This document shows, piece after piece, positions 2,115-26,076 of a stretch of DNA of 32,288 nucleotides. The translations under genes were made by a program, and so were the position numbers. The DNA lies in assembly GCA_039588275.1 (NCBI GenBank), contig JBDHAC010000070.1:1-32288 (forward strand), in the 5' to 3' direction. Every line of letters begins with the position of its first letter. Position 1 is the first letter of the stretch. Under the pieces are notes generated by a model that saw nothing but the letters and a program-made list of their open reading frames with translations, made no database searches and had not been told where the DNA came from. This DNA comes from Gemmatimonadota bacterium (GTDB taxonomy: Bacteria; Gemmatimonadota; Gemmatimonadetes; Palauibacterales; Palauibacteraceae).

Positions 2115-2210
2115 ACAAGTAGGCGGAGTGCGACCTGAGCTCAAGGTTTCGTAGGGTCTGGTTGGACCCTATGTGGACCCTTTAGAAGACCGTACTTCAA
2201 CGATCATCAA

Positions 2211-2300
2211 TCGGGGCGGCGAGATTCGGGGAGCTTGCGACGAGCGAGGACCGCGTCAGCGGCCGCAGCTCTCACTCACGACCTCCTGAACCCCATTCAG
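2211..2300 (-). repeat. tRNA-Pro(GGG) 3' half with 45-nt T-loop insertion, copy 1 (att-like scar)
   Basis: The minus strand reads CTGAATGGGGTTCAGGAGGTCGTGAGT[45 nt]CGAATCTCGCCGCCCCGA. There is no D-arm or 5' half. Near-identical copies lie at 13565 and 13836. Confidence 0.88.
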
Positions 2301-2551
2301 AACGAGTACGGGGCAAGATACGACAAAATGTAGTATTCACGGGGTGTTTCGGGCGTCCACCGTCGTATCTGAACTCACCGAAAACACCAGAAGATCGCAC
2401 GTTCTTACCCCACTCCACGAACTGTTCCCGGATACTGCTGGTCAGGCTCCTTGCCCCTATCTGTACGGCGAACTAGACGGTCTCCTTAGCCGGCTCTAGC
2501 TTGCGACCGATCCATTCAAAGTCGCCACTCAGGATTCCCTCGGAGGTTCCC

Positions 2552-4756
2552 GTGCTCCTCGGTCGGGTGTCTCAGACCGTACTTGGCCTCGCTCTCACCG
2601 TCCTGGCGGGTGCCTCGGGGCTGCGCGGGCAACAGGCGGCCGATTCCGCTGCGACGATTGCGCTCGAGCCCGGGCGTTCTGTCGAGCGGTCTATCGGCGG
2701 AAGCGAGGTTCACAAGTATACCGTGACCCTCAGCGCCGGGATGTTTCTCCATGTCTACGTGAACCAATTCGACGTGAACCTGGCCGTTGCTGTTCACGGT
2801 CCCGACGGGGCCAGGCTGGTGGAAGTCGACAGTACCGCCGACGGTCCCGAAGTCGTCGAGATCGAAGCAGCGAGCTCCGGTGCGTACCGACTCGAGGTGC
2901 GACGGATCTGGGAAGCGGAGGAGGAACCGTACGAGTTGCGGGTCGAGGCCCGGACAGCCTCCGAGCAGAAAGCGGCCCTCGCGGCAAGGCGGGCAGAGGC
3001 GGAAGCGACCCGCGTTTGGATCCAGGAACACGCCATCCCGCTCGCGACCGTCGAGGCGGGTCACGGCTTTGCCGACCTCCAGCCGCTCCGCGAGGTCATC
3101 GGCGACGTCCGGATCGTCGCGCTGGGCGAAGCGACCCATGGCACGAGGGAGTTCTTCCAGCTGAAACACCGTATGCTGGAATTCCTGGTGAGCGAGCTGG
3201 GCTTCGATGTGTTCGCGATCGAGGCGACCCTGCCGGAGGCGATGGACGTGAACCGCTACGTCCTCACGGGGGACGGCGATCCCGGGCGAGCCCTGGCGGG
3301 CATGTACTTCTGGACCTGGGACACCGAGGAAGTTCTGGAGCTGATCCGCTGGATGCGCCGTTACAACGAAGACCCGCAGCACCCCCGCAAGGTCAAGTTC
3401 TACGGGGTGGACATGCAGTACACCCCCCGAGCCGCGCGCGTCACGCTCGACTATCTGCGCCGCGTGGACTCGGCGGCCGCCGCCATCGCCGACTCGGTGC
3501 TCGATCCGTTGGCCGACCCCTTCCTCGCGCGGCACGTCGGCGGGTGGCCCGCGGAGCGGAAGCAGAGTCTGCTGGCATCGATACGGGAGTTGGTGGCGGG
3601 CTTCGAGTCGCGACGTGAGGAGTACGCCATGCGGTCATCCGTCACGGAATGGGACCTGGTCCGGCGGCATCTCCACGTCCTCAGACAGGCGATGGAGATG
3701 CGTGCCGGAACCGACGGCGGTTGGGCCCGCGATAGCGCCATGGCGGCGAATCTCGCCTGGATACTCGAGCGCGAAGGTCCGGGGTCCAAAGCGATACTGT
3801 GGGCCCACAACTACCACGTAAGCACCCAGCCGGGGACCACCGGCTGGCAGCTGCGCCAATGGTTCGGCGAGGAGCTCCGCGTCTTCGGCTTTGCGTTCGA
3901 CCGGGGGGAGTTTCAGGCGCGCGACTTCAGGAGGGACGGCAGACTGCGTCCCTTCCGAGTCGAGCCGGCCCCGGCCGGAAGCCTGGATGGTCAACTCGCG
4001 GCCGCTGGCCTTTCGCTGGCCGCACTCGATCTGCGGGAAGTTCCCGAAACCGGTCCCGCGGCCCGGTGGTTCAGGGCACCTCGGGCCACTCAGAATATGG
4101 GGGCGGGCTACACCGACGAGAATCCGGAGTGGTACCTATCGCATATCCGGGTGACGGACCTGTACGACGCTCTCTTCTTCGTGCGGGAGACCAGCACGGC
4201 CAGGGCCAACCCCACAGGCCAGCGTTCAGGGGTCCGGCCGCCGGCCCCAAATGCCGTCAACCTGGACTTCGAAGCGGGCGAGCCTGGTGATTTTCCGGTG
4301 GGATGGACCGCCGCCGGGGGGACCGCCCAGGTGGAATGGGATGTGGCGCTCACGCGGGAGGACGCCCGGATTGGCACGCAGGCCGTGGTCATCCGACGGA
4401 ACGACAAGGGCGGGTACGGCGAGACCGCGGGGGAGCTTCACCAACGCATCGACGCCACCCCGTGGCGCGGGCAACGCGTAACTCTCGGAGCCTCGGTCCG
4501 AATCGACGACGTGGCGGAGGCGAGCCGTGGCTATCTCTGGATGAGAGTGACTCGTCCGGCGGAGCCCTGGCCCGAGACCGTGTTCTACGAGTACATGGCG
4601 GAGCGGCCGATCACCTCACCCGAGTGGGGTGATTACGAGATTACCGCGGATATCCACGACGACGCGGGCATCATCTCCTACGGCTTCGCGTTCGTCGGCC
4701 CGGGACAGGCCTGGCTCGACGCGGTGTCGCTCGGGCTGGACCGCAGAAGCCCTTGA
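2552..4756 (+). CDS. Secreted erythromycin-esterase-family protein with extra N- and C-terminal beta domains
   Basis: Motifs IVALGEATHGTREFFQLKHRMLEFLV, FAIEA, RDSAMAAN, LWAHNYH and YDALFFV, plus a signal-peptide-like N terminus. Probable start is GTG 2552 after GGAGG (2542-2546); the ORF is open from 2501. Confidence 0.88.
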   Translation: MLLGRVSQTVLGLALTVLAGASGLRGQQAADSAATIALEPGRSVERSIGGSEVHKYTVTLSAGMFLHVYVNQFDVNLAVAVHGPDGARLVEVDSTADGPEVVEIEAASSGAYRLEVRRIWEAEEEPYELRVEARTASEQKAALAARRAEAEATRVWIQEHAIPLATVEAGHGFADLQPLREVIGDVRIVALGEATHGTREFFQLKHRMLEFLVSELGFDVFAIEATLPEAMDVNRYVLTGDGDPGRALAGMYFWTWDTEEVLELIRWMRRYNEDPQHPRKVKFYGVDMQYTPRAARVTLDYLRRVDSAAAAIADSVLDPLADPFLARHVGGWPAERKQSLLASIRELVAGFESRREEYAMRSSVTEWDLVRRHLHVLRQAMEMRAGTDGGWARDSAMAANLAWILEREGPGSKAILWAHNYHVSTQPGTTGWQLRQWFGEELRVFGFAFDRGEFQARDFRRDGRLRPFRVEPAPAGSLDGQLAAAGLSLAALDLREVPETGPAARWFRAPRATQNMGAGYTDENPEWYLSHIRVTDLYDALFFVRETSTARANPTGQRSGVRPPAPNAVNLDFEAGEPGDFPVGWTAAGGTAQVEWDVALTREDARIGTQAVVIRRNDKGGYGETAGELHQRIDATPWRGQRVTLGASVRIDDVAEASRGYLWMRVTRPAEPWPETVFYEYMAERPITSPEWGDYEITADIHDDAGIISYGFAFVGPGQAWLDAVSLGLDRRSP

Positions 4757-4776
4757 GATTAAAGAGCCAAGGGGAA

Positions 4777-4823
4777 TGGAGCCGATCGGATTCGAACCGA
4801 CCACCTCCTGAACCCCATTCAAG
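4777..4823 (-). pseudogene. Chimeric tRNA 3' half (Pro GGG anticodon arm with Ala-type acceptor end)
   Basis: The minus strand reads CTTGA-ATGGGGT-TCAGG AGGTG GTCGG-TTCGAAT-CCGAT CGGCTCC-A. The 5' half is absent. Confidence 0.75.
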
Positions 4824-4836
4824 CGGCGCAGCACCC

Positions 4837-5045
4837 GTACACTTCAGTACACTTCGATACACACCGATTTCGGCGTTTTAACGTCCGTACACTTCGATAC
4901 ACTCCTCCTCACTCTGTGACAGCTGGCGTGACAGTTCGGTTCCGGACTCTTCGCCACCCCCAGACCCGCTGATAGGCACTCAGGCGGCGCAACGTTGACT
5001 TCGATACCACACCGATTTCGCCGTGTTGACTTCGGTGCTGACTTC
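4837..5045. repeat. Cluster of short direct repeats (candidate integrase arm/accessory sites)
   Basis: GTACACTTC at 4837, 4847 and 4887; GTGACAG at 4916 and 4928; ACTTCGATAC(C)ACACCGATTTCG at ~4851 and ~4998; TGACTTC three times in 4996-5045. Confidence 0.7.
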
Positions 5046-5196
5046 CTGCCGAGATCAAGACCACCCAAGGAGGCAGGCGCTCAACGCCTGAGACAGGATC
5101 GGCCGGTCGCGATCGACGTCTCGTGGCGCCCGCGCCGGAGCACGTCGTGCGGGCGGGTCCAATTCGATGAACACCCGTTCTCGAAGCTCCGCGATC

Positions 5197-7185
5197 CTAT
5201 CGGATCACGACCGGCACCCGCATGACCACCGGAGGTCGATTGCGCATGAATGTGCTCACCTCAAGCGTCAGCTCTTCGACTGTCTCCGCGATGATCTCGA
5301 AGTCGTAGGTCTCTCCCGCTCCCAGGTACTGCTCGGCGGGCACCTGGATCGCCTGGTGCGGAGCCACCGCCGCGCCGTCCTTCGAGTAGCGGCGCCACTC
5401 GACGAGCTCGTCGCCTCGCAGGAGCCGGATGTTCTGGTTGTTGCTCGGCGTGATGTTGATGAAGCGGAGCAGGTGCGCCTTGCCACGGGCGAGCTCGAGA
5501 GGGGGTGGCTCGGCGCTCCCGTTGAGGAACGGGGGTGCATCCTCACCCGGGCCTCCCCATCCGAGGAGGAGAACGTGATCCGTCTCGGCATCGTGCTCTT
5601 CACCCGGCTCCAGCACGATGAGCGGCGCGTAGAGTCCGGACGAGAGCTGGGCGGCCTCCTCCATGTGCGTGTGGTAAATGAAGGTTCCTGCCCGGTCCGG
5701 GGTGAAGCGCACCACGAACGAGTCGCCCGCTGCGATGGCCGGTGTGAGTCGGCTCCCGGCCCCGCTCCAGCCTGCAATTCCGTCGTAGATGGCGTCGAGC
5801 TCGATCCCGTGCCAGTGCACTGTGATGGCGATCGGAGTGCGGTTGACCACCGTGACCTCGACGGGCTCGTCCCGCTGGAGGATGATCGGCGTGCCCGGAA
5901 TGAGTACCGAGTCGAGCGCGGGTGGCTCGGCACCCTCCTGGAGAATGTAGCCGTACGCCGGGTCATGGCCGAAGTAGTTCTCGCGCATGTTCGCGTATAC
6001 GCGTAACGCGCGCCGCTCGACATCCTCGGGCTCGCGCAACCCCTTCCCCTCGGGGTCTCTGACTAGAACGCCCATCATGAGCCCCGCCATCCCCTGGTAG
6101 GCGTGCTCGTGCATCATCTCGTGACCGCGCTCCTCGGCCCCTGGGAAGGCCCCGTCTTCTCCGTGCACGATCGTCTCGGGGCGTCGCACGTGCTGCTCGG
6201 CGCTGATGTGCGCGATGAAATGGCAGTGGAACAGCCAGTGCCCTTCCCGCTTCGGCAGCCAGCTGAAGGTCATCGTGGTACGCGCCGGCATGTGTTCGGT
6301 GACGGCGAGCCGGTGCTGCTCCGGCGTATAGACCGTGTCCAATCGGGCGTCCCCGCGCGCCTCGACCTGGTAGTAGAAGCCGTGGAGGTGCATCGGGTGG
6401 GGGGCGGGGCTGACGTTCACGACCCGCACACGCACCGAATCACCCACCACCGCGTCGATGGGCTCCGTGAATGGCCACGAGAGCCCGTTGATGAGGAACG
6501 TATGCGCCGGTTCCTCGCGTTGGGCCTGCACGTCGGCCTGACTCACCCAGAGGCTGACCACCAACACCCGGTCGTCGGCGGAGCCGCCGGGTGGATCGAC
6601 CACGAGCGCCCCCGAGAGGGGTGAATCCCGAAAGATCCCGGGGCGCTCGGGGGGCGGGCCGAAATCGACAGCGCGGCCGAAGTAGAAGTAGCTCCCCGGG
6701 GTCGACGCCCGGAACGCGATCTCTCGCGTGGCACCGGCCGGGATCTCGATCGGCTCGTGCTCCTCCCCGTCCCGATCGTGGAGACCCTGCAGCGTCAGCG
6801 GCCCGTCGATGGTGTTCGTAACGGTCAGGTGGACGTCCGCCCCCGACTCGACCCGGAGGAGGGGCGCCGGTGCCTGAAGCGGACCACCCTTCTCCGCGAG
6901 CGCGATGACGTCGAAGCCCGGCCCGTCGGCCCCCTGCGGGTGGAAGAGCCCGCGACGCGCCTCGATCTCGACATAGAGCACCCCGTCCCGGAACTCGCCC
7001 GCCGGTGTGCGGTTGTCGTTCGGAAGAACGGTCTCGGGCGGACGGTCGCCCGTCGCGAGCCACTCTGCTTCGTTCGATCTGTTCGACGCGGGCGGCCCGC
7101 CAAGGACCGCAGCAAACGCGGCGATCGGTGCGATTGAGGCGGCCAGGACGAGAGAGTGGCGACCACGGGTGAAGTCGATGTGCAT
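5197..7185 (-). CDS. Multicopper oxidase, apparently four cupredoxin domains
   Basis: Copper motifs HPMHLHG, WLFHCHFIAH, TVHWHG and FIYHTH, plus an N-terminal signal peptide. Confidence 0.9.
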   Translation of the reverse strand: MHIDFTRGRHSLVLAASIAPIAAFAAVLGGPPASNRSNEAEWLATGDRPPETVLPNDNRTPAGEFRDGVLYVEIEARRGLFHPQGADGPGFDVIALAEKGGPLQAPAPLLRVESGADVHLTVTNTIDGPLTLQGLHDRDGEEHEPIEIPAGATREIAFRASTPGSYFYFGRAVDFGPPPERPGIFRDSPLSGALVVDPPGGSADDRVLVVSLWVSQADVQAQREEPAHTFLINGLSWPFTEPIDAVVGDSVRVRVVNVSPAPHPMHLHGFYYQVEARGDARLDTVYTPEQHRLAVTEHMPARTTMTFSWLPKREGHWLFHCHFIAHISAEQHVRRPETIVHGEDGAFPGAEERGHEMMHEHAYQGMAGLMMGVLVRDPEGKGLREPEDVERRALRVYANMRENYFGHDPAYGYILQEGAEPPALDSVLIPGTPIILQRDEPVEVTVVNRTPIAITVHWHGIELDAIYDGIAGWSGAGSRLTPAIAAGDSFVVRFTPDRAGTFIYHTHMEEAAQLSSGLYAPLIVLEPGEEHDAETDHVLLLGWGGPGEDAPPFLNGSAEPPPLELARGKAHLLRFINITPSNNQNIRLLRGDELVEWRRYSKDGAAVAPHQAIQVPAEQYLGAGETYDFEIIAETVEELTLEVSTFMRNRPPVVMRVPVVIR

Positions 7186-7276
7186 GTGCGTTTTCTCCTA
7201 CGCGCGCCGCCGACGAGGTCGGGGCCGGTCTTGGCCTCTGGACGACGCCGGAGGCCATCGTGACAGGTCGATAAGG

Positions 7277-10192
7277 TTACTCCTGGTCCAGACGCGGTAC
7301 GTCTATCTCGAAGCCGGGATACACCTGGCGTCCGAGCTCGTTGGGATCCACGAACGACAGATTCTGCCGGTACATGATCTCCGGCGAGGGCCTCAGGTAG
7401 ATCGCGCTCACCGCCTCGTCGTCGGCATCCGCGGATGCCACCTCGGATCGTGCGTGGTAGTCGGCGTCCTCCACGCGATCCGTACACTCGACGACCTGCA
7501 TCATCCCCATGTCTTCATGCAGCAGGATGTGGCAATGGTGGACCCACGTTCCGATGAAGTCATCGAAGCGCGTGCGGAATACCACACGGCCTCCGTTCCG
7601 CGGGATCGACACCGTGTCCATCCAGCGTGGTTCCGGGAGGATGTTGTGTAGCTCACCGTGCTCGTCGGGCACCTCGATCCGAATAACCCACATGGGGTTG
7701 ATGTGGATGTGGAACGGATGGTCGCTGCCTTTCGACGTGAGCATGAACTCCGGGTCTTCCCAAAACCTCCGCTGCCCCTCGGCGCGGGACATGACGTAAG
7801 GGTAGTAGTGGCCAAGATAGGATCCGGGCTGTGGGAATCGCTCCCGGTCGGTATGCCCCCACAAGGTCTGTGAGTTGTTGTACAGCACCCATTCTTCGGC
7901 AGTATTCACCAGCACGCGGGCCCGCCGGGGATCATAGGGCATGAACTTACGCGGCAACTCAGGATCCGGATTGCGCGCCAGATCGAAGTCCGGGTTGATG
8001 GCCATCGTGCGCGTGAGGTTGGGCAGCAGCACAGACACCCCGTCCTGCATGCCCCACAGAAGGTTCTCAAGCTCGGGACGAGCTTCGGCGAAGCCCTCGG
8101 GGGTCCGTATGCAGGGGAAGACCGCACCTCCGGTCCCGGAGTAGGAGATCACGCGGGTCCGGGCGCTGCCCGCGTCGACCCTGGTGCGTCGAGCTTCCTC
8201 CGGCGGGACCCTGAGCTCTTCTTCTTTGACGGGCTGCAGAAGTGGCGGGACGGGAGGCAGACGATCTCGGAGGCTGAGCACGTCGAAGTCCCCTCCCTCC
8301 ACCGGCTTGCCGCTGACGTGGATGTAGGCCACGACGACGTCGAAGTCGGGCCGGAACTCCGCGACGATGCCCCTCGCGATCTCGGTCTGCAGTTGCCCCT
8401 GGAAGTTGTCCGTCTGGACGTGCGCCTCCTGAGCGAAGATCGTGAATGTCTTCTCCGCCGCGTCGAGGGGGGCCTTGAAGAAGAGGTCCGTCCGGTTCGC
8501 GTTCCCCAGGTAGACTTCGTTGGGGCGCACGAAGCATCGCCGCAGTGAGTCGCCATCCCGGAAGCATGCTTCGTACGCGCGCAGGCGGGCCCGCGCCTCG
8601 TCCTCCCCCTCTTCGGCTGGCGTCGTGAACGGGTTCCTCGTCCCCGGGTTCTGTTCCGACAGGTCCTTGATCGTATGCCGCGCTTCGCCGTTTTCCTCGG
8701 TCACGAGGGTCATGCCGTCGAACGAGAGCTGGTGGAGAGGGAGCTTCGCCGCCTCGATCTCCGCCAGGGTGACGGGCTCCAGCCGGCGTCGGCGGTCCTC
8801 GCCCTCGCCCTCCGCGACGACGCGCCACATGCGATTGCGGCGCTGAACGAATTGCCCCTCCAGGACCATGAAGCGCTTGGTGCCGCTGCCGTCGACGCTC
8901 CCGTTCAGCACCCGCCAGCGCTCCACCGCACCCGGTCTCATCCGCATCACGCTCGCCGGTTTCACACCGTTCACGGCCGTGAGCGGCGGGAACCGCAGGT
9001 TGTTGCGGCGCTCTCCGGCGTCCAGATCCAACGGTCCGACGAAGACCCGTTGGATGAGCACGAGTCGCTCGCGGTAGTCGTGCGGCCCCGTCCTCGTTTC
9101 CGGGTCGGGCCATGATTCGCCAGTCAGGGCGCGGTTGATCGCTTCGTCCACATCGCCTTCCACGATCAGGAAGCCGGCCATGCCGCTCGCGACCTGATCA
9201 TGCGTGGAGCCGTGGCTGTGCGGGTGATACCAGTGCGTGCCGGACGGGTGGGGCATCACGCTGCCGTCCTTCTCTAAACCCAGACGGTACGCGTATTCGA
9301 GCTCCCCCACGTGCTCATGCTCTCCCAGGGTCCCCAACTCGGGGTCGCCCGAAGCCTGGCGGGCTTCCCAGTCGGCGCGCGGCAGGATGCGGAGCAGCAC
9401 GTTGTCGGAGTGCGTGCCGTCCGGGTTGGTCTCGGGGGCCACGTGCAGGCCGTGCGTGTGGATATTCGTGACGTGCGTCGCGTGCTGTCCGTTGACGTGC
9501 TGCTTCAAGCTCCATCCCGGACGCACCTCCGGATGGATGACCTTGAGGAGCTGTTCAGGAAAGAAGAAGGGGTTGCACGGGCGCGGATCGTTCGGATCTC
9601 CTCCACGCACTTCCGCCTCCACGAGGCGGCACACCTCGCGATCCGTATCGAGCGGTAGATCGACCGGATCGGGACTGGGGCCGACGTGTGTTTCCTGTTC
9701 GTCGAGGGGGAGCGTATTGCGGATCCGGATCCTGAGGACGTCGTCGTTCCGGACCCGGACTGTCGGGCCGGGGCTCGCACCGTTGTAGCTGAAGATCGCA
9801 GGGGCCGGGTTCCCGGGCGACGGCGATGGTCCCGGATTCTGATGCCGGATCAGGTTCAATTCGAGGTGCTGGCCGGGCCAGTGATCCGGCCGCCACGTCC
9901 AGGGCTCCTGCCAGTTCTCTGCCCCTACGAGCTCGGGGTCGACAAGGTCGCCTATCTCGGGGGGCGATGCCGCCGCCCGGGCCGCCGCTGCTGCGGCCTC
10001 CGAGCCTTGGCCCCCTTGCGTCCCGTCGGCGCCGGGTGGCGTGCCTTGCCCCTCGGGCGACGGACCCTGCTCGGGCTGGACTGGAGGCGCACACGCCGCC
10101 AATGAGGCCGCTACGCTCGTCGCACTCCACTTGAGGAAATCCCGTCTGTCGGGCGAAGGCGATCTGGAGTCTCCGCAGGGATCGTTGCTCAC
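7277..10192 (-). CDS. Large Tat-exported multicopper oxidase (probable lipoprotein)
   Basis: Probable GTG start at 10192 after GGGAGA. Twin-arginine DRRDFLK and lipobox-like LAAC. Copper motifs TNIHTHG, HWYHPHSHG, HPFHIH and HHCHILLHEDMGMM. Confidence 0.9.
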   Translation of the reverse strand: MSNDPCGDSRSPSPDRRDFLKWSATSVAASLAACAPPVQPEQGPSPEGQGTPPGADGTQGGQGSEAAAAAARAAASPPEIGDLVDPELVGAENWQEPWTWRPDHWPGQHLELNLIRHQNPGPSPSPGNPAPAIFSYNGASPGPTVRVRNDDVLRIRIRNTLPLDEQETHVGPSPDPVDLPLDTDREVCRLVEAEVRGGDPNDPRPCNPFFFPEQLLKVIHPEVRPGWSLKQHVNGQHATHVTNIHTHGLHVAPETNPDGTHSDNVLLRILPRADWEARQASGDPELGTLGEHEHVGELEYAYRLGLEKDGSVMPHPSGTHWYHPHSHGSTHDQVASGMAGFLIVEGDVDEAINRALTGESWPDPETRTGPHDYRERLVLIQRVFVGPLDLDAGERRNNLRFPPLTAVNGVKPASVMRMRPGAVERWRVLNGSVDGSGTKRFMVLEGQFVQRRNRMWRVVAEGEGEDRRRRLEPVTLAEIEAAKLPLHQLSFDGMTLVTEENGEARHTIKDLSEQNPGTRNPFTTPAEEGEDEARARLRAYEACFRDGDSLRRCFVRPNEVYLGNANRTDLFFKAPLDAAEKTFTIFAQEAHVQTDNFQGQLQTEIARGIVAEFRPDFDVVVAYIHVSGKPVEGGDFDVLSLRDRLPPVPPLLQPVKEEELRVPPEEARRTRVDAGSARTRVISYSGTGGAVFPCIRTPEGFAEARPELENLLWGMQDGVSVLLPNLTRTMAINPDFDLARNPDPELPRKFMPYDPRRARVLVNTAEEWVLYNNSQTLWGHTDRERFPQPGSYLGHYYPYVMSRAEGQRRFWEDPEFMLTSKGSDHPFHIHINPMWVIRIEVPDEHGELHNILPEPRWMDTVSIPRNGGRVVFRTRFDDFIGTWVHHCHILLHEDMGMMQVVECTDRVEDADYHARSEVASADADDEAVSAIYLRPSPEIMYRQNLSFVDPNELGRQVYPGFEIDVPRLDQE

Positions 10193-10506
10193 GTGACTCG
10201 GTCTCCCGTTAGGCCATCTTCGGAGTGGGTCCGGCCTGCCTCGGAGACCAAAGACCCAAGGAATGCAAGCTCGAAAGATATCAGCCGAGGTCGGGTGTGC
10301 AGCCCCCGGGTCCGAATGCACTTCGGCCATTGACATGGCGAGCACCGTGCTTGACCGGCCGTGCAGGGCCCCCGCACGTTGCGTCCCCGACGCCCGTTCG
10401 CATGGAGAGGACATCGGCCACTGCGGCACCAGGGCCGGAGACGGGCCAGTGTCAGCCAGCTCTCTGAACGACCCGCCCGAGTTCGAGCCGGAGTAGAATC
10501 GACCCC

Positions 10507-13254
10507 GTGAGAACTGCCTTCTTCTTGTTTCGAATGCCGCGAGGGCTTTGCGGCCTCGCCGTTACGGTCCTCGTGGCTGCTTCGTTCACAGCTGGGGCCG
10601 CGTTGCTCTCCGCACAGGCCGTCACGGGAGAGGTGTCGGGGCGCGTGAGGTCCACCGACGGCGCTCCGCTCGCCGACGTCGTAGTCACGGTTACGGGCGT
10701 AAACCGCCGGGACGAACACGGCATCCTGACTGACAGCCGGGGCGCCTTCCGCTTCCCGGCCCTGCCCGTAGGAGAGTACTCGGTCCGGCTGAACCGCATC
10801 GGTCACCAGACCGTCGTCTACACCGGTGTGCGGGTCCACCTTAGACGCACATCCTGGCTGGGCGAGATCACCCTGCCAGTCGCCGCCGTCTCCATGGAGC
10901 CATTGACGGTCGAGGTGGGCGGCACCCCGGTCGATCCGACTCGAGCGGCCGTCGGCATGACCCTGAGCGCGAGCGAGTTCCGCCAGCTCCCGACCGACCG
11001 CGACTACAAGTCGATCATACAGCTCCTCCCACACGCCAACGCGAGCTTCCTCGGGGATCCCGTGAACGTGGCCGGCAGCACGGGACTCGAGAACGCGTAT
11101 TACGTCGAGGGCGTCGACGTCACCGACGTCTACCGGGGCCGGGGCGGGACGACGCTGCCGTACAACTTCGTCGAGGCCGTGGAGCTGAACGTCGGCGGCT
11201 ATGAGGCCGAGTACGGCGGCGCGCTGGGCGGAATCGTCAACGTCGTCACGCGGTCCGGCACCAACGAACTGCAGGTATCGGGTTTCGGGTACGTCACTGG
11301 CAGCGGCCTGTCCGCAGATCCGGCACCCGTCCCGGGGGTCCAAGAGCGGGCCGGCGTCGAAGAGCTCGATTTCGGGGTGAGTGTCGCCGGACCGGTCGCC
11401 CGCGACCATGTGTGGTTCTTCACCGCGTACAACCCAACCTTCGTGCGCGAGGATGTCCGCCTCCCCGAGTTTGCACTCCAGGAGGCTTCGCTCACCCGGC
11501 ACGTGTTCGCGGCCAAACTCGACTGGCGCGTGTCGGCCCGCGCAGACCTCGCGTTCGCCGTCTTCGGCGACCCCACTAGCGAGCGCCGGGTCGCCCCCCC
11601 CTCTGGGGGGGTTCAGCTGCAGAACCCTGATCCGATCCTGAGCCGTCACAACAAGGGCGGTGTCAACGCGTCGCTCCGGGGGACGGTCCGGATACACGAG
11701 AAGCTCGTGCTGGAGGGATCCCTCGCGCACCACCAGGGGCGCGAGGACCTCGAGGGGGCCACCGAACTCGGTCGCCGGGAGCCCGTCTTCCTGGACCGAC
11801 GGAACCTGCCCCGGATCCTCCTCTCCGGCGGGCACCGAGACGACCAAGAGCTGGCCAGCGCGCGGAACTCCGTGAAGCTGAAGGCAAACTTCTTTGCAGG
11901 CGGTCACACGATTGCAGGAGGTCTACAGTATCAGGACATTCGGCTCGACGTGCTGAACCTGGAGGATCCCGGTCAGGTCATCCGCACCGCCGACTCCCTC
12001 TACGAGGCCTCCTTCTTCAACCAGGACTTCACCGTCCGTAGCCGGGTCGTGAGCCTGTTCCTCCAGGACTCATGGGCCCTCACGGACCGGCTCAGGATTC
12101 TTCCGGGCCTGCGCTGGGATGGGCAGTATCTGATCGATCAGAACGGGGCCGTCGGCCAGCGCATCGCGGACCAGTTTCAGCCACGTCTCGGGTTCACGTA
12201 CCTGGCCGGCAGAGAGGGGCGTCACAAGATCTTTGGCCACGTCGGCCGTTTCTACCAGCAGCTGGCGCTATTCTGGTCGACGCTCGGACTGGCCGGCACC
12301 GATCAGCGGCAGGCGTTCTTCCACCGGGATCCGCGCGTATCCACCGATTCCCCCGACTCCGTGCGGGTGTTTGCCGACCCGGCGCAGATACGGGGCGGTG
12401 TCGAGGATCTCGAGGGGGAGCACCAGGACGAGTTCGTGCTGGGATACGAGGCGGCGCTCGGGAGCGCGTTCACGGTAGGGGTCCGGGGGATCCACCGCTT
12501 GCTCGGGGCGAGCGTGACCACTGCCTTTCAACTCGAGGGCGAGCTGACGGGCGGCAACCCGGGCCGAGGCCCTCTGAGTCACCTTCCCGAGTCGAAGCGG
12601 ACGCATACGGCCCTCGAGCTCACCCTAGGGGTCCATCGGGCGGGGCTACGCGCGATGGCTTCGTACGTCCTTTCCAGAAGCCATGGCAACTACCCCGGGC
12701 TTTTCGCTGCGGATGCGGGCGGCCTTCGAGGTGGCAGCTTCGGCCCGAACAACAACCAGTTCACGTACTTCCCGGTCCAACAGGTCAACAGCGAGGGTCT
12801 GCTGCCCAACGACCGGACCCATGTCTTCAAGCTCTTCGGTGCATACGAGCTGGCTTTGGGGTTGACGATCGGCACCTCCGTCGTCGTCCAGGCCGGGACG
12901 CCGCTCAGCGAGTTCGGGAGGGTACCGAGCGGATTCAACACGCCGCTCTTTCTGGAGCCGCGTGGCTCTGAAGGCCGCTCGCCCGCCGTCTGGAACCTCG
13001 ACCTGCGGCTCACCTACGATCTTCCACGGAGCCTGCCGGGGCGGCTCATCCTGGACATGCTACACATCGGGAACCCGCAGGAGGCGGTGCGTTTCGACCA
13101 GCGGCGCTTCAACGGGGCGCGTGGCTCTCCCTTCGACTCGTTCGAGCAACTCGTGGCCAGTCAGGTCGGTGAGCGCCCGGCGTTCGGCACGCCCATCGGC
13201 TTCCAACCCCCTTTCACGGTCCGGCTGGGTTTCGAGACGGTCGTGCTGCCGTGA
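10507..13254 (+). CDS. TonB-dependent receptor with N-terminal carboxypeptidase-regulatory-like domain
   Basis: Signal peptide, GEVSGRV...GAFRFPALPVGEYSV domain, plug signature GGYEAEYGGALGGIVNVVTRSG, barrel strands FLQDSW and FQPRLGFTY, and C-terminal VRLGF. Confidence 0.9.
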   Translation: MRTAFFLFRMPRGLCGLAVTVLVAASFTAGAALLSAQAVTGEVSGRVRSTDGAPLADVVVTVTGVNRRDEHGILTDSRGAFRFPALPVGEYSVRLNRIGHQTVVYTGVRVHLRRTSWLGEITLPVAAVSMEPLTVEVGGTPVDPTRAAVGMTLSASEFRQLPTDRDYKSIIQLLPHANASFLGDPVNVAGSTGLENAYYVEGVDVTDVYRGRGGTTLPYNFVEAVELNVGGYEAEYGGALGGIVNVVTRSGTNELQVSGFGYVTGSGLSADPAPVPGVQERAGVEELDFGVSVAGPVARDHVWFFTAYNPTFVREDVRLPEFALQEASLTRHVFAAKLDWRVSARADLAFAVFGDPTSERRVAPPSGGVQLQNPDPILSRHNKGGVNASLRGTVRIHEKLVLEGSLAHHQGREDLEGATELGRREPVFLDRRNLPRILLSGGHRDDQELASARNSVKLKANFFAGGHTIAGGLQYQDIRLDVLNLEDPGQVIRTADSLYEASFFNQDFTVRSRVVSLFLQDSWALTDRLRILPGLRWDGQYLIDQNGAVGQRIADQFQPRLGFTYLAGREGRHKIFGHVGRFYQQLALFWSTLGLAGTDQRQAFFHRDPRVSTDSPDSVRVFADPAQIRGGVEDLEGEHQDEFVLGYEAALGSAFTVGVRGIHRLLGASVTTAFQLEGELTGGNPGRGPLSHLPESKRTHTALELTLGVHRAGLRAMASYVLSRSHGNYPGLFAADAGGLRGGSFGPNNNQFTYFPVQQVNSEGLLPNDRTHVFKLFGAYELALGLTIGTSVVVQAGTPLSEFGRVPSGFNTPLFLEPRGSEGRSPAVWNLDLRLTYDLPRSLPGRLILDMLHIGNPQEAVRFDQRRFNGARGSPFDSFEQLVASQVGERPAFGTPIGFQPPFTVRLGFETVVLP

Positions 13255-13532
13255 TTGGAGGCTGATCGGCAAGCTGGCGCAGGCCACGGCAATCGGGTGG
13301 CCCTCAGGGGACGGGGTCGTCGCTCCGCCGGCATTCGCAGTTGATGACGGGGAGTTGCGGGACACTGTCAATCGTGCGCCGTACACACCCATCAGTGGCC
13401 GAGAGCTCGCGCCTGGCAATCCCTCAGCGGGTAGGGCTATGAGTTGACGCAGAACAAGACGGCCGCTCGATCCTGCACCCACTGCGTGACAGTCTAGTCA
13501 AATCGAAGAAGAGAAGGAGGGTCCAGATGCAC

Positions 13533-13558
13533 GAAAGCCCGCATGGTTGCGGGCTTTC
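13533..13558. terminator. Intrinsic terminator-like hairpin directly 3' of tRNA-Pro fragment copy 2
   Basis: Perfect 11-bp stem GAAAGCCCGCA / TGCGGGCTTTC with loop TGGT, 6 nt from the fragment's 3' end. Confidence 0.65.
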
Positions 13559-13564
13559 TCGTAA

Positions 13565-13653
13565 TCGGGGCGGCGAGATTTGGGGAGCTTGCGACGAGCG
13601 AGGACCGCGTCAGCGGCCGCAGCTCTCACTCGCGACCTCCTGAACCCCATTCA
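13565..13653 (-). repeat. tRNA-Pro(GGG) 3' half with 45-nt T-loop insertion, copy 2
   Basis: Same as copy 1. The insert at 13583-13627 is identical; the T-loop reads ATTTG instead of ATTCG on the + strand. Confidence 0.88.
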
Positions 13654-13735
13654 ACCGCTCTCCGCGCCAAGGAACAGCGACGCCGTGGACCCCATATGGA
13701 CCCCACGGCGCTTTTTAGAAACTGCGTAATGTCAA

Positions 13736-13779
13736 TGCGCCCGGGAGAATTCGAATCCCCAACCTCCTGATCCGTAGTC
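13736..13779 (-). pseudogene. tRNA-Arg(ACG) 3' half, degenerate (att-like scar)
   Basis: The minus strand reads GA-CTACGGA-TCAGG AGGTT GGGGA-TTCGAAT-TCTCC CGGGCGC-A. The 5' half is absent. Confidence 0.75.
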
Positions 13780-13835
13780 GGCCGCGTTGTGCCCAATTTG
13801 TGCCCAAGACATTGACTGAGTTCCCGTAACTCTAA

Positions 13836-13927
13836 TCGGGGCGGCGAGATTCGGGGAGCTTGCGACGAGCGAGGACCGCGTCAGCGGCCGCAGCTCTCAC
13901 TCGCGACCTCCTGAACCCCCCACTCAG
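13836..13927 (-). repeat. tRNA-Pro(GGG) 3' half with 45-nt T-loop insertion, copy 3
   Basis: The insert at 13854-13898 is identical to copies 1 and 2. The anticodon region is altered (extended C run, then CACTCAG on the + strand). Confidence 0.85.
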
Positions 13928-14005
13928 TGTGTACGGGCGTTTCGAGCCGTTTCACGCGAACCTGTCATAAGGCTCGGGTCCTAATCGAAATCGCCCCCGT
14001 CGGGA

Positions 14006-14734
14006 TCACCAGAGCTGTCCGCTGATCTCTTGGCGCAGCTTACTCTGCAATCTCCTTGCTCGCATCAGGGCCGCCGACCCACTTGAAGCATCGATCCGAT
14101 CTGCCACCGTCTCCCAGAACTGACCTTTGGCCCCGTGTTCGAGGGGAATCCCGCCGCCTTCTCGTATTGCCGCTACTAACTCCTCTTCGGCGGAGCCAAT
14201 CACCTTGTTGTGCTTGGCCCCCCATGTCTTCCTCACCATTCCAAGGATGTTGTTCATGTCCTGCTGGTTGAGGTCCGGGGAGTAGAATGTGACCCTCACA
14301 CGGAATTCACCTCGTTGCTCCATCGGATTCTGCTCGATCTTCCACGCGCCACGGACAAACATCAACCGGCCGGTCAACACGTACCCCACCGTCGTGCGGT
14401 TCGGAACGCCGTACGCCTGCTCGATCCACTCCGCGCATTCGGCGAGAGGGCGAAGCGGGCTTTCCAATGGTCCAAGGACGTGCGCGAGTACCCCGTTCTC
14501 TAGGTTTACATAGGCCACGATAGGCGGTCGCGGCTCGCGGATCGGAGGTAGCTCCCCTCTCTCGAGGTGAGCCTGCCAGGACTCGATCCATTCGACAGCC
14601 TGACGGTAGCTACGCATCGGGAGACGTACTTGGGCTGCTGCCTGGATCTCCTGTCTGGTCTGCTCGATCCTCGGCCGCTCAAGCTCAAAGACAGCTCGCC
14701 ACCGCAGACGCATGCGGTTTCTTCCCGCTTCCAA
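14006..14734 (-). CDS. Hypothetical protein of the integrative element
   Basis: Long ORF (open to 14809) with natural amino-acid composition. Probable start is TTG 14734 after GGAGG, or ATG 14713. Divergent from the RHH gene across an AT-rich stretch. Confidence 0.6.
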   Translation of the reverse strand: MEAGRNRMRLRWRAVFELERPRIEQTRQEIQAAAQVRLPMRSYRQAVEWIESWQAHLERGELPPIREPRPPIVAYVNLENGVLAHVLGPLESPLRPLAECAEWIEQAYGVPNRTTVGYVLTGRLMFVRGAWKIEQNPMEQRGEFRVRVTFYSPDLNQQDMNNILGMVRKTWGAKHNKVIGSAEEELVAAIREGGGIPLEHGAKGQFWETVADRIDASSGSAALMRARRLQSKLRQEISGQLW

Positions 14735-14823
14735 GGCGCCTCCATTTTTAACGATTTCTTTTGTCGATTTCGAGCGTACAGTATACACGAAATGTGTACC
14801 TAACCTCAAGAGATGGACATGAT

Positions 14824-15033
14824 ATGGCTTACATCCAGCCTTTGAGGGATGCGACGGTCACGGCACGGATCACACTCGCGGACCGACAATTAGTCGAGAT
14901 CGCGGCGCGGGTATGTCGGACGACGGTGTCCGCATTCGTAGCCGAAGCTGCGACTGAGGCGGCGCGGCGTGAGCTGCTCCGCGATGATGCTCCACGGACC
15001 TCGGGCATCGCGGGTGGGGAGAGCGACTCGTGA
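14824..15033 (+). CDS. DUF1778-like ribbon-helix-helix DNA-binding protein
   Basis: RDATVTARITLADRQLVEIAARVCRTTVSAFVAEAATEAARREL fits the RHH/TacA-like pattern. Confidence 0.7.
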   Translation: MAYIQPLRDATVTARITLADRQLVEIAARVCRTTVSAFVAEAATEAARRELLRDDAPRTSGIAGGESDS

Positions 15034-15368
15034 GTCGGGCCTGGGCGTGCCAAATGGTCTACCGCTCCGGCCTGTACACCGCACGCACGCTGGACGACGT
15101 GAGGGATAGCGTTCGCGGGATCCTGTTCCTCGTCCACGACGGCGAAGGCCGGCCCATTCCGCTCATCGATAGCCGGATTCTCGCTCAGCTCTACCGCGAG
15201 GTGCTCGTCGCGATCGCCGTTTCCGAAGGATCGACCCCAACCGTTTCAGCACCTGCTAAGTGCTCGGGTGGCCGGGCACGTCCACGTAAGCCCCGAACAC
15301 GCTTGTCGGTACGCCTTCCCGACCCTCGTCGGGGGGGTGGGGCAGGTCGGGCGGGGATCGACCGATGA
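15030..15368 (+). CDS. Hypothetical protein
   Basis: GTGA overlap with the upstream gene and ATGA overlap with the downstream gene (15365) indicate translational coupling. Confidence 0.5.
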   Translation: MSRAWACQMVYRSGLYTARTLDDVRDSVRGILFLVHDGEGRPIPLIDSRILAQLYREVLVAIAVSEGSTPTVSAPAKCSGGRARPRKPRTRLSVRLPDPRRGGGAGRAGIDR

Positions 15369-17171
15369 AGAAGGTCGCCCGCGAAAAGAACGGGCTGCGA
15401 TATGAGTACATCCCGCACCCAAAGGGGCCAGGTGAAGGTGTATGCGCGAGTAAAGCGGCGGCTGGAGCAACACCTTGACTATGCGGATGTGGGCGCACAC
15501 GCCGTGATCGCGGCGTTCGTCGTTGTCACCTACGTGGCCCGCGCGTTCGGGCCCTGTCCCTCGGCGTACGCCACATTGCGCACCCAGCTGTGGAACTCGG
15601 TCGCGACTTCCTGCTGTTCGGCTTCCGTGTCGAGCAGGTGCACGATGGCGAGTTGACCGAGATCCCGGTTCGTGTGCTTAGCCGCGTGGACGGCGACAGC
15701 CTGCGTGTCGAAGTCCTCGAAGGCGACGAGTTCGAGGTCGCCGGCAGCCCCCACGTGATCGACCCACGGTGGCAGCCGCCGCTGCTCGACAAGATGTGGA
15801 GCAGAGCGGGGGTCGTGGCGCTCGTGCAAGGGGAGATTCCTCCCACGCCGGCCGAGGTGTATGCGCGAGTAAAGCGGCGGCTGGAGCAACACCTTGACTA
15901 TGCGGATGTGGGCGCACACGCCGTGATCGCGGCGTTCGTCGTTGTCACCTACGTGGCCCGCGCGTTCGCCATATCTCGGTCTTCTCGGTCCGAAGGGTAC
16001 AGGGAAGTCCGTCACGCTCGAGACAGTGGAGCGGCTCGCGCTCAATGCCTATAAGGGCCGGGTGACGGCGGCGGCGCTCGGGGACACGACTTCCGCGCAG
16101 CGGGGAACGGTGTTGATTGACCAAGCACACCGACTCCCCTACGAGCTCCTTGACCTCGTGGTGGACGGATACCGCCGCGACGGCGGACGTCGACGCGTAG
16201 TGGATTCGGACCATCGAGGGCAGCCCCACGAGTTCGAGACATTCGGTCCGAAGATCGTCGCCTCCGCGGAAGGGATCGACCCGGACCTCAAGGATCGGCT
16301 ATTCGTGATCCACACAGCCCCGAGCGCGCGGCCTGTGCAGCCCCTCCCCGCACGGGACGACGAGTTCAGGCAGCTCCGCAGTGACTTGTACACGATGATG
16401 CTGAGCCACTGGCCGCTGTTCACCGAGGCCGCTGGCCGCCTAGAGAACGGGGCGACGGTCCGTAACCGAGCCGACGAGCTTTGGGCACCACTCGAGGTGG
16501 TGCTCACGGTTTGCCAGGCCCCGGCCGAGGAGATGGAGGCGGCTCGTGCGCTCTACAAGCGGTCGCTCACGGAGACGCTCGCCGAGCTGGGCGATTGGGA
16601 GCTGGCCCTCCTGGATGAGTTGGACGAGCAGATCACCACGGAATCGGTTGAGCTGACCAACGATGCGCTGCTTACGGCCGTCCTGAGGCGGCTCGACCTG
16701 CCTGAGGACGCACCAAAACCAGGTCCGCGGTGGCTCGGGACTGCGCTGGACAAGCTGAACCTTCTCGACGGCAAGAAGCGGCGGCAGATAGATGGGAAGC
16801 GCATCCGCGTCTACGGCTTCAGCCGCGCTCGCGTGCGAGGCCAAGTCCAACGGTTTGGACTGCCCACCCAAGGTGACCGACCTCCCCCTGAGGGGTCGGG
16901 CAGCGATAAGGATAATGCCAACAACGATATACAGGGCGCTGCCCGACTGCCCGACCGTTCAGCTGGCGTCCAGAATGGGGGGTCCGCCGACCAAGTGCTG
17001 CTAGCGGAAGCCGCCGGCCCCGTCTGGGACCGGCTCTGGGAGCTCGAGCCCGAAGGAGATGGGCCGCTCATGCGGCAGTTCATAGCCGAGGTCCACAGCG
17101 GCGTCACGCTGGACGATTTGGTGCACTGGTGTGAGCGGCTGGGAATTGGCCGCGGGGGCGGGGCGGCGTGA
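15365..17171 (+). pseudogene. Disrupted DUF3631-like P-loop NTPase (replication/helicase-type)
   Basis: Walker A GPKGTGKS, Walker B-like VLIDQA, and GYRRDG, FGPKIVAS, DRLFVI, RADELWAPL. Interrupted by a 123-bp self-derived insertion (15437-15559) and an apparent 8-bp deletion after 15968. Repairing both gives one 563-aa ORF. Confidence 0.75.
15436..15968 (+). repeat. Exact 114-bp direct duplication (15436-15549 = 15855-15968)
   Basis: Base-by-base identity from AGGTGTATGCG to GCGCGTTCG, offset 419 bp. Confidence 0.95.
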
Positions 17172-17518: not shown

Positions 17519-17521
17519 TGC

Positions 17522-17798: not shown

Positions 17799-17809
17799 GG
17801 AGGCGAGCG

Positions 17810-19051
17810 ATGGCACGACGGAAGCCCTGGACGTGGAAATGTGGCCCGCACGGCGCACGGGTTGTTCTCCGCGAGCGGAGCTATGGCAGCAACGTGCAGG
17901 TCGGGGCTTTCGACCGGACGATCGGCGGCCGCCGGTGGCGCAGTCTCAAGTTCAAGGTGCGGGATGTGGACGGCCAACTGATCCCCGACGCTGTGTCCCG
18001 CGCGAAGGAAGCGGCGTTAGACCTGTCCACACATCTGATTCGCGGCGAGTCGGACCGGAACGAAGAGGTGACGCTCGGCGAGCTGATCGCCCTCTTCAAG
18101 CGTGATAGGGTACCTGCGATGCGCGGCCGGCACCGCCTCGAAACCGATCGCGAGCTGGAGCTGCTACGGCGTGTGCTCGGGTCCCAGATCCGAGTTCAAG
18201 AGATCGGGTCCAGGGAGTGGGATGTGATTCGGCACCTACGAGCAAGTGGCACCATAGACGGACGCGGCCAGCGGCTGTCGCCGGACGAACGCACGCCCAC
18301 AGCCGAGCGTACGGTCGCGAAGACCCTCAAGGCGCTGCGCCAGCTCTGCCGCTTCGGAACGACGTACCGGCGAAATGGACGACCGTTGCTCGCGTTCGAC
18401 CCAACGGCCGGTCTTCAGCTACCCGTGAACCCAGATCCCGGCGGGCCGGTCTGCACGGACGACGAGTACGGCCGTCTACTCGCCGCCAGCCAAGGTCATC
18501 AGATGCGCGTCGGGAACCGAAAGATGGTCCCGAGCTACCTGTCGACCCTACTTGTCCTGTGTGCGGAGACTGGGCGCCGCATCGGCGCCGTCGTCGCTCT
18601 GCGCTGGGAGGACTGGCTACCGAATGAAGGGTCGCACGGCATGCTCCGCTGGCGTGCGGATAGCGACAAGCTTCGGCGTCGGGCGGTCACGCCGGTCACA
18701 CCAGAGGTGCGCGAGGCCCTAGAGCGGCTCCGTCGGACCCATCCAAACTTCCATGACTGGATGTTCCCCGCACCCAACAGCAACGGTCACATATCGGTCG
18801 CTCTTGTCAGCCGGTGGTTTCGCGGCTGTGAGAAACTGGCTGGACTCGAACACGAGCCGGGCTTCGGATACCACTCTTTGCGAAGGGCCTTCGCTACCAA
18901 GCGGAAGGCGCTGCCCGTACAGGATGTCGCGGCGCTTGGAGGCTGGAAAGGGACGCAGGTGTTGATGAACCTCTACCAGCGCGCGGACGTCGACGCGATG
19001 GAGAAAGTGCTGCTCGAGGGCCAGAAGGTGGAGCTGCGGGTCGTCAGGTGA
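17810..19051 (+). CDS. Tyrosine recombinase/integrase
   Basis: Catalytic residues in order: ETGRRIG (R), DSDK (K), HSLRR (HxxR), LGGW, NLYQ (Y). RBS AAGGAGG. Ends 94 bp from the tRNA-Lys 3' end. Confidence 0.93.
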   Translation: MARRKPWTWKCGPHGARVVLRERSYGSNVQVGAFDRTIGGRRWRSLKFKVRDVDGQLIPDAVSRAKEAALDLSTHLIRGESDRNEEVTLGELIALFKRDRVPAMRGRHRLETDRELELLRRVLGSQIRVQEIGSREWDVIRHLRASGTIDGRGQRLSPDERTPTAERTVAKTLKALRQLCRFGTTYRRNGRPLLAFDPTAGLQLPVNPDPGGPVCTDDEYGRLLAASQGHQMRVGNRKMVPSYLSTLLVLCAETGRRIGAVVALRWEDWLPNEGSHGMLRWRADSDKLRRRAVTPVTPEVREALERLRRTHPNFHDWMFPAPNSNGHISVALVSRWFRGCEKLAGLEHEPGFGYHSLRRAFATKRKALPVQDVAALGGWKGTQVLMNLYQRADVDAMEKVLLEGQKVELRVVR

Positions 19052-19145
19052 GGGGGATGATTCTGGTACCTAAACTGGAGCACCGAACGCAAACCGAAGC
19101 CGAGGGCGTGCGCATAAGGCGCACTAGCGCAGTGAGTTATGTGAG

Positions 19146-19218
19146 TGCGCCGCCAGGGAATCGAACCCCGAACCTACGGATTAAGAGTCCGTTGCTCTGC
19201 CAATTGAGCTAGCGGCGC
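19146..19218 (-). tRNA. tRNA-Lys(CTT)
   Basis: GCGCCGC acceptor stem, anticodon loop CTCTTAA, GGTTCGATTCC T-arm. Confidence 0.96.
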
Positions 19219-26042: not shown

Positions 26043-26076
26043 CCATCGTTTACTGAATCACGCGAGCTTGGAGAGC

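Follow-up and report, generated by a model that had tools for sequence, protein, structure and literature searches.

Why three tRNA fragments should be interrupted by one and the same 45-nt sequence was the question raised by the window examined here, i.e. the whole 32,288-nt stretch of a Gemmatimonadota contig. Sequence comparison confirmed what the initial annotation had reported: the three copies were identical and, relative to the intact gene, lay between T54 and C56 of tRNA-Pro(GGG) 3' halves on the minus strand, in place of T55 (Table 1). Of the separate mutations ascribed to the halves, those of the first two stood, while the third merely loses homology in the anticodon loop. The halves are tyrosine-integrase island fragments of the attL/attR kind, and the integrase of the window matched PF00589 and phage families. 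As in published fragments of this type, the crossover is centred on the anticodon; the damage reported for those consists of a small deletion close to the 3' end and involves no structured T-loop insertion (PMC4383910). In practice, such inserts break up att-site tRNA fragments and can conceal the ends of islands from finders that rely on fragments.

Table 1. Features of the window bearing on the 45-nt insert (positions in the window;., no strand given)
Feature	Position	Strand	Remarks
Insert copy 1	2229..2273	+	45 nt; predicted ssDNA fold on + strand
Insert copy 2	13583..13627	+	identical to copy 1
Insert copy 3	13854..13898	+	identical; same half found in public run X1, no differences
Displaced tRNA-Pro(GGG) 3' half 1	2211..2300	-	anticodon stem to discriminator; T-stem C>T
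Displaced tRNA-Pro(GGG) 3' half 2	13565..13653	-	G57>A in T-loop
Displaced tRNA-Pro(GGG) 3' half 3	13836..13919	-	homology begins in anticodon loop
tRNA-Arg(ACG) 3' half	13735..13779	-	no insert; internal control
Chimeric half	4777..4821	-	no insert; internal control; Pro anticodon side; T-arm and acceptor apparently Ala(TGC)-type (isotype label by reading)
Terminator-like hairpin	13529..13559	-	matches trailer of intact tRNA-Pro gene on C62
Short direct repeat pair	2163..2180	.	adjoins half 1; putative integrase arm-type sites
Direct repeat pair, same type as 2163..2180	13686..13704	.	between half 2 and Arg half; putative arm-type sites
Another direct repeat pair	13787..13807	.	adjoins half 3; putative arm-type sites
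Direct repeats	4831..4905	.	common to an insert-free Pro half on C98 and many G001 halves; putative arm-type sites
Tyrosine integrase	17810..19051	+	adjoins tRNA-Lys(CTT); PF00589 and phrog_1 matches; context only
tRNA-Lys(CTT)	19145..19218	-	last of nine-tRNA cluster; edge of island holding the halves

Several ordinary origins of the three copies had been envisaged at the outset. A long segmental duplication is rejected, since the copies have no flanks in common beyond the tRNA half, the shared stretch being 20 nt long on one side of the insert and 23-28 nt on the other. The copies are not an artefact of assembly either, as the insert-bearing half was recovered without differences in contigs of other public runs (X1 records 3 and 8). 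Nor is the sequence a dispersed REP-type repeat indifferent to T-loops: all five copies recorded in the 4.1 Mb of its own genome (86% complete) occupied tRNA halves. The identity of the inserts amid differing flanks is not significant (p about 0.23, two point differences both lying outside the insert), and a fourth copy of the 45-mer (C21) displayed three substitutions within the insert. The 87-nt half had matches in 10 of 24 genomes of the same family, some of them to the tRNA only. Public runs X2-X20 each contained small shares of the stretch, and four of the runs were compared with it; in a contig of X2, the T-loop of the Arg(ACG) half was filled by a related insert.

An intron-like insert of the source tRNA had been among the initial proposals. 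The intact tRNA-Pro(GGG) gene, located on another contig of the same genome (C62 of G000, positions 1054-1129), displayed no insert, which refutes a tRNA intron. In a search of 61 relatives, all 15 full Pro(GGG) genes that were matched read GTTC, and none of the 61 displayed a non-T after T54, both patterns being blind to inserts beginning with T. The joints were also unlike those of tRNA introns, as the T-stem fold leaves, by eye, a 3x7 internal loop and not a bulge-helix-bulge. Group I and group II introns were discarded as well, 45 nt being too short for a ribozyme and no Rfam intron being matched.

Among Gemmatimonadota genomes and metagenomes, halves belonging to 16 tRNA types displayed related inserts of 37-120 nt, always with the T-loop interrupted at the same position. 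All fetched loci together provided 171 unique copies, of which 126 were assigned to a tRNA type by the 3'-end signature of the tRNA and about 9 lay outside tRNAs. Pro(GGG) halves accounted for 72 of the 126, many of which were probably inherited together. Insert subtypes and host tRNAs displayed a many-to-many relationship, and only two copies were reversed (Gly CCC and Val TAC). A search with the core only, free of tRNA context, yielded 49 GTDB loci; five were chance matches lacking the GAGC start, and 42 of the remaining 44 were placed, by eye, in a tRNA or a fragment resembling one, at the T-loop position. The distribution of the core was patchy (11 of 300 other genomes of the phylum, in two families). 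Unrelated hairpin families filled the same Pro T-loop spot and also GGGT^TCAG, a similar sequence on the anticodon side; tandem stacking of inserts occurred as well. No Rfam entry matched an insert, either in the window or at 14 loci with short, long or other-family inserts.

Different hosts of nearly the same insert were compared. The identical 45-mer was found in a Gly(CCC) half, and Ala(TGC)-type halves from another genus matched it at 43-44 of 44 bases. In the Pro, Gly and Ala halves, host-specific T-stems were intact on both sides of the insert, and the joints had only 2-10 matching bases in common, too little for ordinary gene conversion. Together with the 16 host types and the two orientations, these observations support the tiny, site-specific mobile palindrome put forward in the initial annotation. 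The target is a short one, GT^TC, and not the T-loop itself. GT preceded the joint in most copies, and four of the seven non-tRNA copies in genome G165 lay at GT^TC; these four may stem from a single event. The joints were not uniformly clean: T55 was kept, with no clear duplication, in 87 of the 119 parsed junctions and replaced in 32.

Fold and strand were reconsidered. The tRNA-strand fold first proposed, an outer stem with an inner hairpin, did not outscore shuffled sequences (z of -0.64 for RNA and -0.76 for DNA). The same was true whichever strand was folded, with RNA or DNA parameters, for the 45-mer as well as for the 87-nt half. Sheared G·A pairs are given no score by the folding program, so that these energies neither favour nor disfavour a plus-strand fold. 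On the tRNA strand, loops and tandem mismatches were pyrimidine-rich; only on the opposite strand did they read as C-GNA-G loops with tandem G·A pairs, indicating that the first reading had folded the wrong strand. Counting was confined to tails lying outside the search core (72 unique ones): they had 63 C-TNC-G triloops, where shuffles gave 2.6 (maximum 8), and two in the reverse sense. GCGNAGC is an unusually stable DNA mini-hairpin with all four bases at N (PMC13037366), and C-GNA-G loops with tandem G·A are a signature of DNA minihairpins. The predicted plus-strand ssDNA fold of copy 1 comprises a hairpin at bases 2-13 (TT loop) and another at 14-43 (GTCA loop), each with a tandem G·A. The alternative T-stem pairing, supposed to be mutually exclusive with the fold, was not upheld, since the T-stem differs in Gly and Ala hosts.

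Among 16 short forms, 98.6% of the cells were paired (21-55% in slid controls) and four pairs had changed on both sides; none of 500 shuffles reached the covariation score. Related sequences inflate covariation controls. Further compensatory stem changes appeared in a separate comparison, and an alignment revealed an invariant GA/GCA internal loop in the palindrome. Compensatory changes imply selection on the fold. Long forms looked as if a module had been added to a short form, in its second loop; a recursive rule, with every insertion into a TNC loop, was broken by a nested 23-nt module and is not claimed.

On balance, we favour the view that the family consists of gene-less hairpin inserts in discarded tRNA halves, spreading as ssDNA elements; the insert itself is likely a non-autonomous ssDNA mini-element. 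It would fold as ssDNA on the strand opposite the tRNA, and an enzyme acting in trans would insert the hairpin at GT^TC, repeatedly and independently across hosts. Only dispensable tRNA copies would retain the insert, any hit in a gene that the cell needs being purged. Insert-bearing halves, which mark the junctions of islands and cassettes, would be copied further together with these, and the three identical copies in the window probably arose, in part or entirely, in this way. A new chemistry by which ssDNA is inserted and no target is duplicated would interest students of mobile elements and of genome editing.

Passive spread alone, i.e. a few ancient insertions followed by att-site inheritance and gene conversion, with no present mobility, is an unlikely alternative. 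It would account for the 87 bases common to the three window copies, for the failure of gene searches to find an enzyme, and for genus g13, where T-loop inserts always displayed one ending and anticodon-side inserts another, as inheritance predicts. Against it stand the short matches at the Pro, Gly and Ala joints with T-stems and loops kept, the range of hosts, orientations and non-tRNA sites, and the selection on the fold. If the inserts were only passengers on att sites, their value would be modest.

Nearly all copies occurred where islands or single-gene cassettes join, next to arm-type repeats. This association, the occupation of the same spot by several unrelated hairpin families and the conserved folds would suit a domesticated accessory of tRNA-anchored cassettes, whose fold tunes or blocks the use of the junction by the integrase or prevents a tRNA from being restored by the half. 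Yet, counts of displaced halves with a T-loop insert in three arrays were only 2 of 7, 2 of 5 and 4 of 7; with about half or more of the junctions lacking it, the insert is not a required recombination site. The attC-like functional site suggested at first is likewise not supported. Moreover, about 25 bases separate the insert from the anticodon stem, where displaced halves start, and copies occurred in tRNA arrays, in simple 3'-end duplications and outside tRNAs. An accessory role is improbable. Integron attC sites were not supported either: no AAC or GTT was read in the 45-mer (cores RYYYAAC/GTTRRRY), and many junctions lack the insert.

For the preferred ssDNA element, a mobilising enzyme was sought. 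ORF clustering around about 200 loci recorded cargo genes, mainly Ser/Thr kinases, and no shared nuclease, HUH or RT gene. Searches with PF01541 and PF01797 in the own genome, 40 relatives and five insert-bearing genomes, with flanks read, revealed no link to the insert. A GIY-YIG gene at one locus (L056) carries its own repeats and was discarded. Three genomes of this genus each displayed one GIY-YIG match, in a long reading frame, and a single Y1 match lacking the first His and the catalytic Tyr; the family-wide Y1-like gene was rejected as degenerate. No excised circle, isogenic empty/filled pair or autonomous partner was seen in this study. The 38-base minimal substrate, the folding strand and the four-base target are starting points for an enzyme hunt.

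The closest known counterparts are the tyrT/tyrV repeats of E. coli with RtT RNA (rttR), which we take to be Rfam RF00391. In E. coli K-12, four duplicated tRNA-Tyr 3' parts displayed a 68-nt gene-less T-loop insert without target duplication, whose hairpins, of the C-GNA-G and C-GNNA-G kinds, form on a single strand. The build of this long-known repeat is shared with the family, i.e. a multi-hairpin T-loop insert in a duplicated tRNA 3' part with GNA loops on one strand, and its position, mirrored through the TTCGAA palindrome, equals that of the reversed copy in L070. In contrast, its sequence is different (no RtT match at E<=1 in the window or at E<=5 in the 14 loci), insertion follows G57, orientation is opposite to that of most family copies, and it is annotated as an RNA.

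That annotation as a small RNA, and the link of RtT to tyrT processing described in one report (10.1101/2024.07.17.603846), would favour an action as RNA, either as an RtT-like structured RNA or as a spliced, intron-like piece restoring the tRNA half. Contigs from one RNA run (X15) span the insert, and 15 loci displayed it within full-length tRNA-like sequences. However, those contigs show neither strand nor splice, the insert-free joint being that of the intact gene; the insert was absent from the intact Pro genes tested, both orientations occur, G·A pairs arise on the non-tRNA strand and Rfam gave no match. An RNA role appears very improbable, and structured inserts in tRNA fragments, RtT included, are probably DNA-level mobile hairpins rather than RNAs. 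In the literature searched, no paper described RtT as a T-loop-inserting DNA element or dealt with hairpin inserts in the T-loops of displaced tRNA halves; the supplements of PMC5737381 and PMC8632094 could list such a motif. More tentatively, and with somewhat less than even confidence, all these inserts, the unrelated same-spot families and RtT may form one hitherto undescribed class of enzyme-less ssDNA mini-transposons, composed of GNA mini-hairpins and homing on the T-loop GTTC across bacterial phyla, which something other than a RAYT or a classical transposase would mobilise.

Among other known systems, derivatives of IS200/IS605 (PATEs) are ssDNA hairpins inserted by a trans-acting enzyme next to a short fixed sequence without duplication. 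Unlike them, family inserts are far shorter, often replace T55 and occur in both orientations at a palindromic target, and no parent IS with matching ends was found in the flanks of nine Y1 genes or at about 200 loci; the Y1 flanks, from three insert-bearing genomes, contained other repeats. Classical MITEs were rejected, the insert forming two side-by-side hairpins with unlike ends and displaying no inverted repeats with duplication. REPs are described as short extragenic imperfect palindromes, some with a conserved unpaired GA and some in specific small palindromic targets (PMC3733652), whose hairpin-bulge-hairpin is recognised as ssDNA (PMC6006769). The family shares the imperfect palindrome with conserved mismatches, but differs from REPs and REPINs in its branched build of two to four hairpins, the lack of a terminal GTAG/CGTC tag (CGTC of the 45-mer occurs only in a loop), its low copy number and its near-exclusive tRNA target. 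No intact RAYT (HUH-Y1) was found in three genomes of this genus, the own one being 86% complete. Two scans of viral contigs gave no match to the family core, and the hairpin of the second insert family gave 22, mostly other repeats or chance. This second family has a hairpin module in common with GTAG-tagged REP pairs in viral contigs L303 and L304.

T-loop inserts in displaced tRNA 3' parts (halves) are a real phenomenon, far wider than the three copies of the window. As the initial annotation had reported, these three copies share one 45-nt sequence and occupy T-loops of tRNA-Pro(GGG) 3' halves (minus strand); comparison with the intact gene on contig C62 of the source genome placed them between T54 and C56, in replacement of T55. 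Homology among the copies stops where the tRNA half stops, which speaks against a single long segmental duplication. Nor is the insert a product of assembly, since the insert-bearing half recurs on contigs assembled from other public runs, one of which has a related insert in the counterpart of the window's Arg(ACG) half. The pattern of identical inserts versus individually mutated flanks was present, but it constitutes weak evidence (p about 0.23). Two further copies were found in the source genome, both in tRNA halves: a Pro half on contig C21 holds one with three substitutions, and a Leu(CAA) half on contig C17 holds a longer variant. Beyond these and the window copies, a profile search of this genome gave nothing above noise. 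Halves without insert were also present: the window contains two, one of Arg(ACG) and one a Pro/Ala-type chimera, and contig C98 contains a Pro half.

Positions of the inserts and of other features in the window
Feature	Positions	Remarks
45-mer insert, first copy	2229-2273	
45-mer insert, second copy	13583-13627	
45-mer insert, third copy	13854-13898	
Small integrase element	13920-19145	tRNA-Lys gene at one end, tRNA-Pro half at the other; nine ORFs lacking PHROG matches
Perfect 114-bp direct repeat	15436-15549 and 15855-15968	within the small integrase element
Tandem repeats	25938-26052 and 28117-28240	periods of 23 nt and 33 nt; unrelated to the insert

The window halves form junctions within an island beginning at tRNA-Lys(CTT) and a tyrosine integrase, with multicopper oxidases, a TonB-dependent receptor, an erythromycin-esterase-family gene and a methyltransferase as cargo. 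Short direct repeats adjoin each half and may be integrase arm sites. The halves begin at the anticodon stem, as in the anticodon-centred class of att sites (accessible part of PMC4383910). In relatives, such halves occur in arrays with one or a few cargo genes between them. Displaced halves with a T-loop insert numbered 2 of 7, 2 of 5 and 4 of 7 on contigs of three other genomes (G001:C34, G013:C40 and G014:C41, respectively), and an accessory role of the insert at cassette junctions appears rather improbable. Such arrays, covered by five fetched loci (two of them on G001:C34), contained 5-7 displaced tRNA-Pro halves, with arm-type repeats and terminator trailers common to the halves, an integron-like, tRNA-anchored cassette organization. 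A Lys half matching the tRNA-Lys element of the window was found on contig C12 of the source genome.

Scanning GTDB with the insert core alone yielded 49 loci, five of which were chance matches (other phyla, no GAGC start). Among the remaining 44, 42 were titled Gemmatimonadota, and two, though labelled otherwise, lay in tRNA halves of this kind. Visual inspection placed 42 of the 44 at the T-loop position in tRNAs or tRNA-like fragments. Metagenomes added at least 122 loci, giving at least 171 unique copies across all fetched loci, 37 to about 120 nt long. Among the matches listed, 3'-end signatures made for this analysis assigned 126 of the 171 to 16 tRNA types plus two reversed copies; the other 45 were mostly decayed or truncated halves, about nine not being in tRNAs. 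Distribution was patchy, the exact core occurring in 11 of 300 other genomes of the phylum, in two families. Insert subtypes and tRNA hosts were related many-to-many, and we consider it unlikely that a few old insertions merely spread passively. In G001, one Gly(CCC) half held an insert identical to the window 45-mer; Ala(TGC)-type halves of G013 held nearly identical ones, each host keeping its own T-stem on both sides. The mutually exclusive pairing with the T-stem proposed at the outset relies on the Pro T-stem and is thus absent from these hosts. An RNA or intron role is very improbable.

T55 was retained at 87 of 119 parsed junctions (32 of 151 copies being unparsed). The full-length Pro(GGG) genes tested in 61 relatives were free of insert, all 15 matches reading GTTC, and none of these 61 genomes had a non-T following T54. 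The same spot of the Pro T-loop was filled by unrelated hairpin families in 6 other genomes of 200, a seventh harbouring the 45-mer family. Since one unrelated family also occurred at the look-alike GGGT^TCAG (^ marking the insertion joint) on the anticodon side, and since four of seven copies outside tRNAs in another genome, G165, lay at GT^TC inside 7-nt tandem repeats, the target appears to be a short DNA sequence, for which spare tRNA halves would offer, in their T-loop, the commonest safe example.

Several related arrangements were recorded. A second hairpin family of about 40-55 nt (ten loci, in G001, G013, G014, G375 and G376) had GNA loops and tandem G·A when read on the anti-tRNA strand, and final bases varying with the insertion site. 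In Pro halves it takes the place of T in GGGT-T-CAG on the anticodon side; one genus has it in the T-loop too. Inserts may also be stacked in tandem: at four loci one T-loop held two unlike inserts head to tail, one of these loci (L062) having a third on the anticodon side. Long inserts at five loci contained a 23-nt module, nested once or twice, whose GNA loop lies on the opposite strand. At four loci, an Arg(TCG) 3' end and an insert together formed a short unit repeated in tandem (five consecutive units in L185). Accessory tRNA arrays at three loci had inserts within full-length genes, and L052 and L056 shared an adjoining ORF that we take to be RtcB-like. Finally, eleven loci displayed full-length tRNA-Leu-like sequences, with or without insert, with compensated acceptor stems, highly variable anticodon arms and often Ser/Thr kinase genes nearby; they are possibly an undescribed tRNA-like element.

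Energy folding gave nothing special for the insert. Read on the anti-tRNA strand, 16 short forms (one further form with shifted register was left out of the alignment) could be folded as a pair of neighbouring hairpins, in which 98.6% of cells were paired and four base pairs had changes on both sides. Their covariation score was reached by none of 500 shuffles, while slid controls paired at 21-55%, relatedness inflating such controls. In 72 unique tails, which lie beyond the core used for searching, C-TNC-G triloops numbered 63, compared with 2.6 after shuffling; in reverse sense there were only 2. A TNC on the tRNA strand is a GNA on the opposite one, where GA/GCA is the sequence of the invariant internal loop. 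As DNA, GCGNAGC and GCGNNAGC form mini-hairpins of exceptional stability with a sheared G·A closing pair, and they are present in single-strand origins and the N4 promoter (accessible part of PMC13037366). The plus strand of the window 45-mer fits this build, with 13 Watson-Crick pairs, five G·A candidates and predicted GTCA and TT loops.

The insert works like a small ssDNA-hairpin mobile repeat of RtT-like build, and by the tests run it belongs to none of the named families. In E. coli K-12, RtT (RF00391) is a 68-nt T-loop insert located after G57 in each of four duplicated 3' parts of tRNA-Tyr; one of its strands has five hairpins of GNA or GNNA type, the other strand none. Its build is the same as that of the Gemmatimonadota inserts but its orientation is opposite, and no sequence or Rfam match linked the two. 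IS200/IS605 derivatives are a further system for comparison. REP/REPIN sequences likewise fold as ssDNA into imperfect hairpins, and small palindromic sequences are the insertion targets of some (accessible parts of PMC3733652 and PMC6006769), whereas the Gemmatimonadota inserts differ from them in the tag, copy number and RAYT tests. The accessible parts of PMC8632094, PMC5737381, PMC10542128 and 10.1101/2024.07.17.603846 do not describe a T-loop hairpin insert, and no account of such inserts in displaced tRNA halves was found in a literature search of main texts, with thin coverage of subscription journals.

We hold with moderate confidence that the insert is a non-autonomous element, which would move as folded ssDNA and be inserted at GT^TC by an enzyme acting in trans, without target duplication and sometimes with replacement of T55. 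Copies landing in tRNA genes that the host needs would be purged; halves bearing inserts would then be copied along with their islands. Searches for the enzyme were negative, about 200 loci having no candidate gene in common nearby. No solo GIY-YIG gene was found in the three genomes of the source genus, and its Y1 match was degenerate. Where other insert-bearing genomes had GIY-YIG or Y1 genes, these were accompanied by other repeats. A single-copy Y1-transposase-like gene recorded at 17 loci was conserved in 16 of 24 genomes of the same family; mostly devoid of the first His of HUH and of the catalytic Tyr, it probably encodes a domesticated dead HUH protein.
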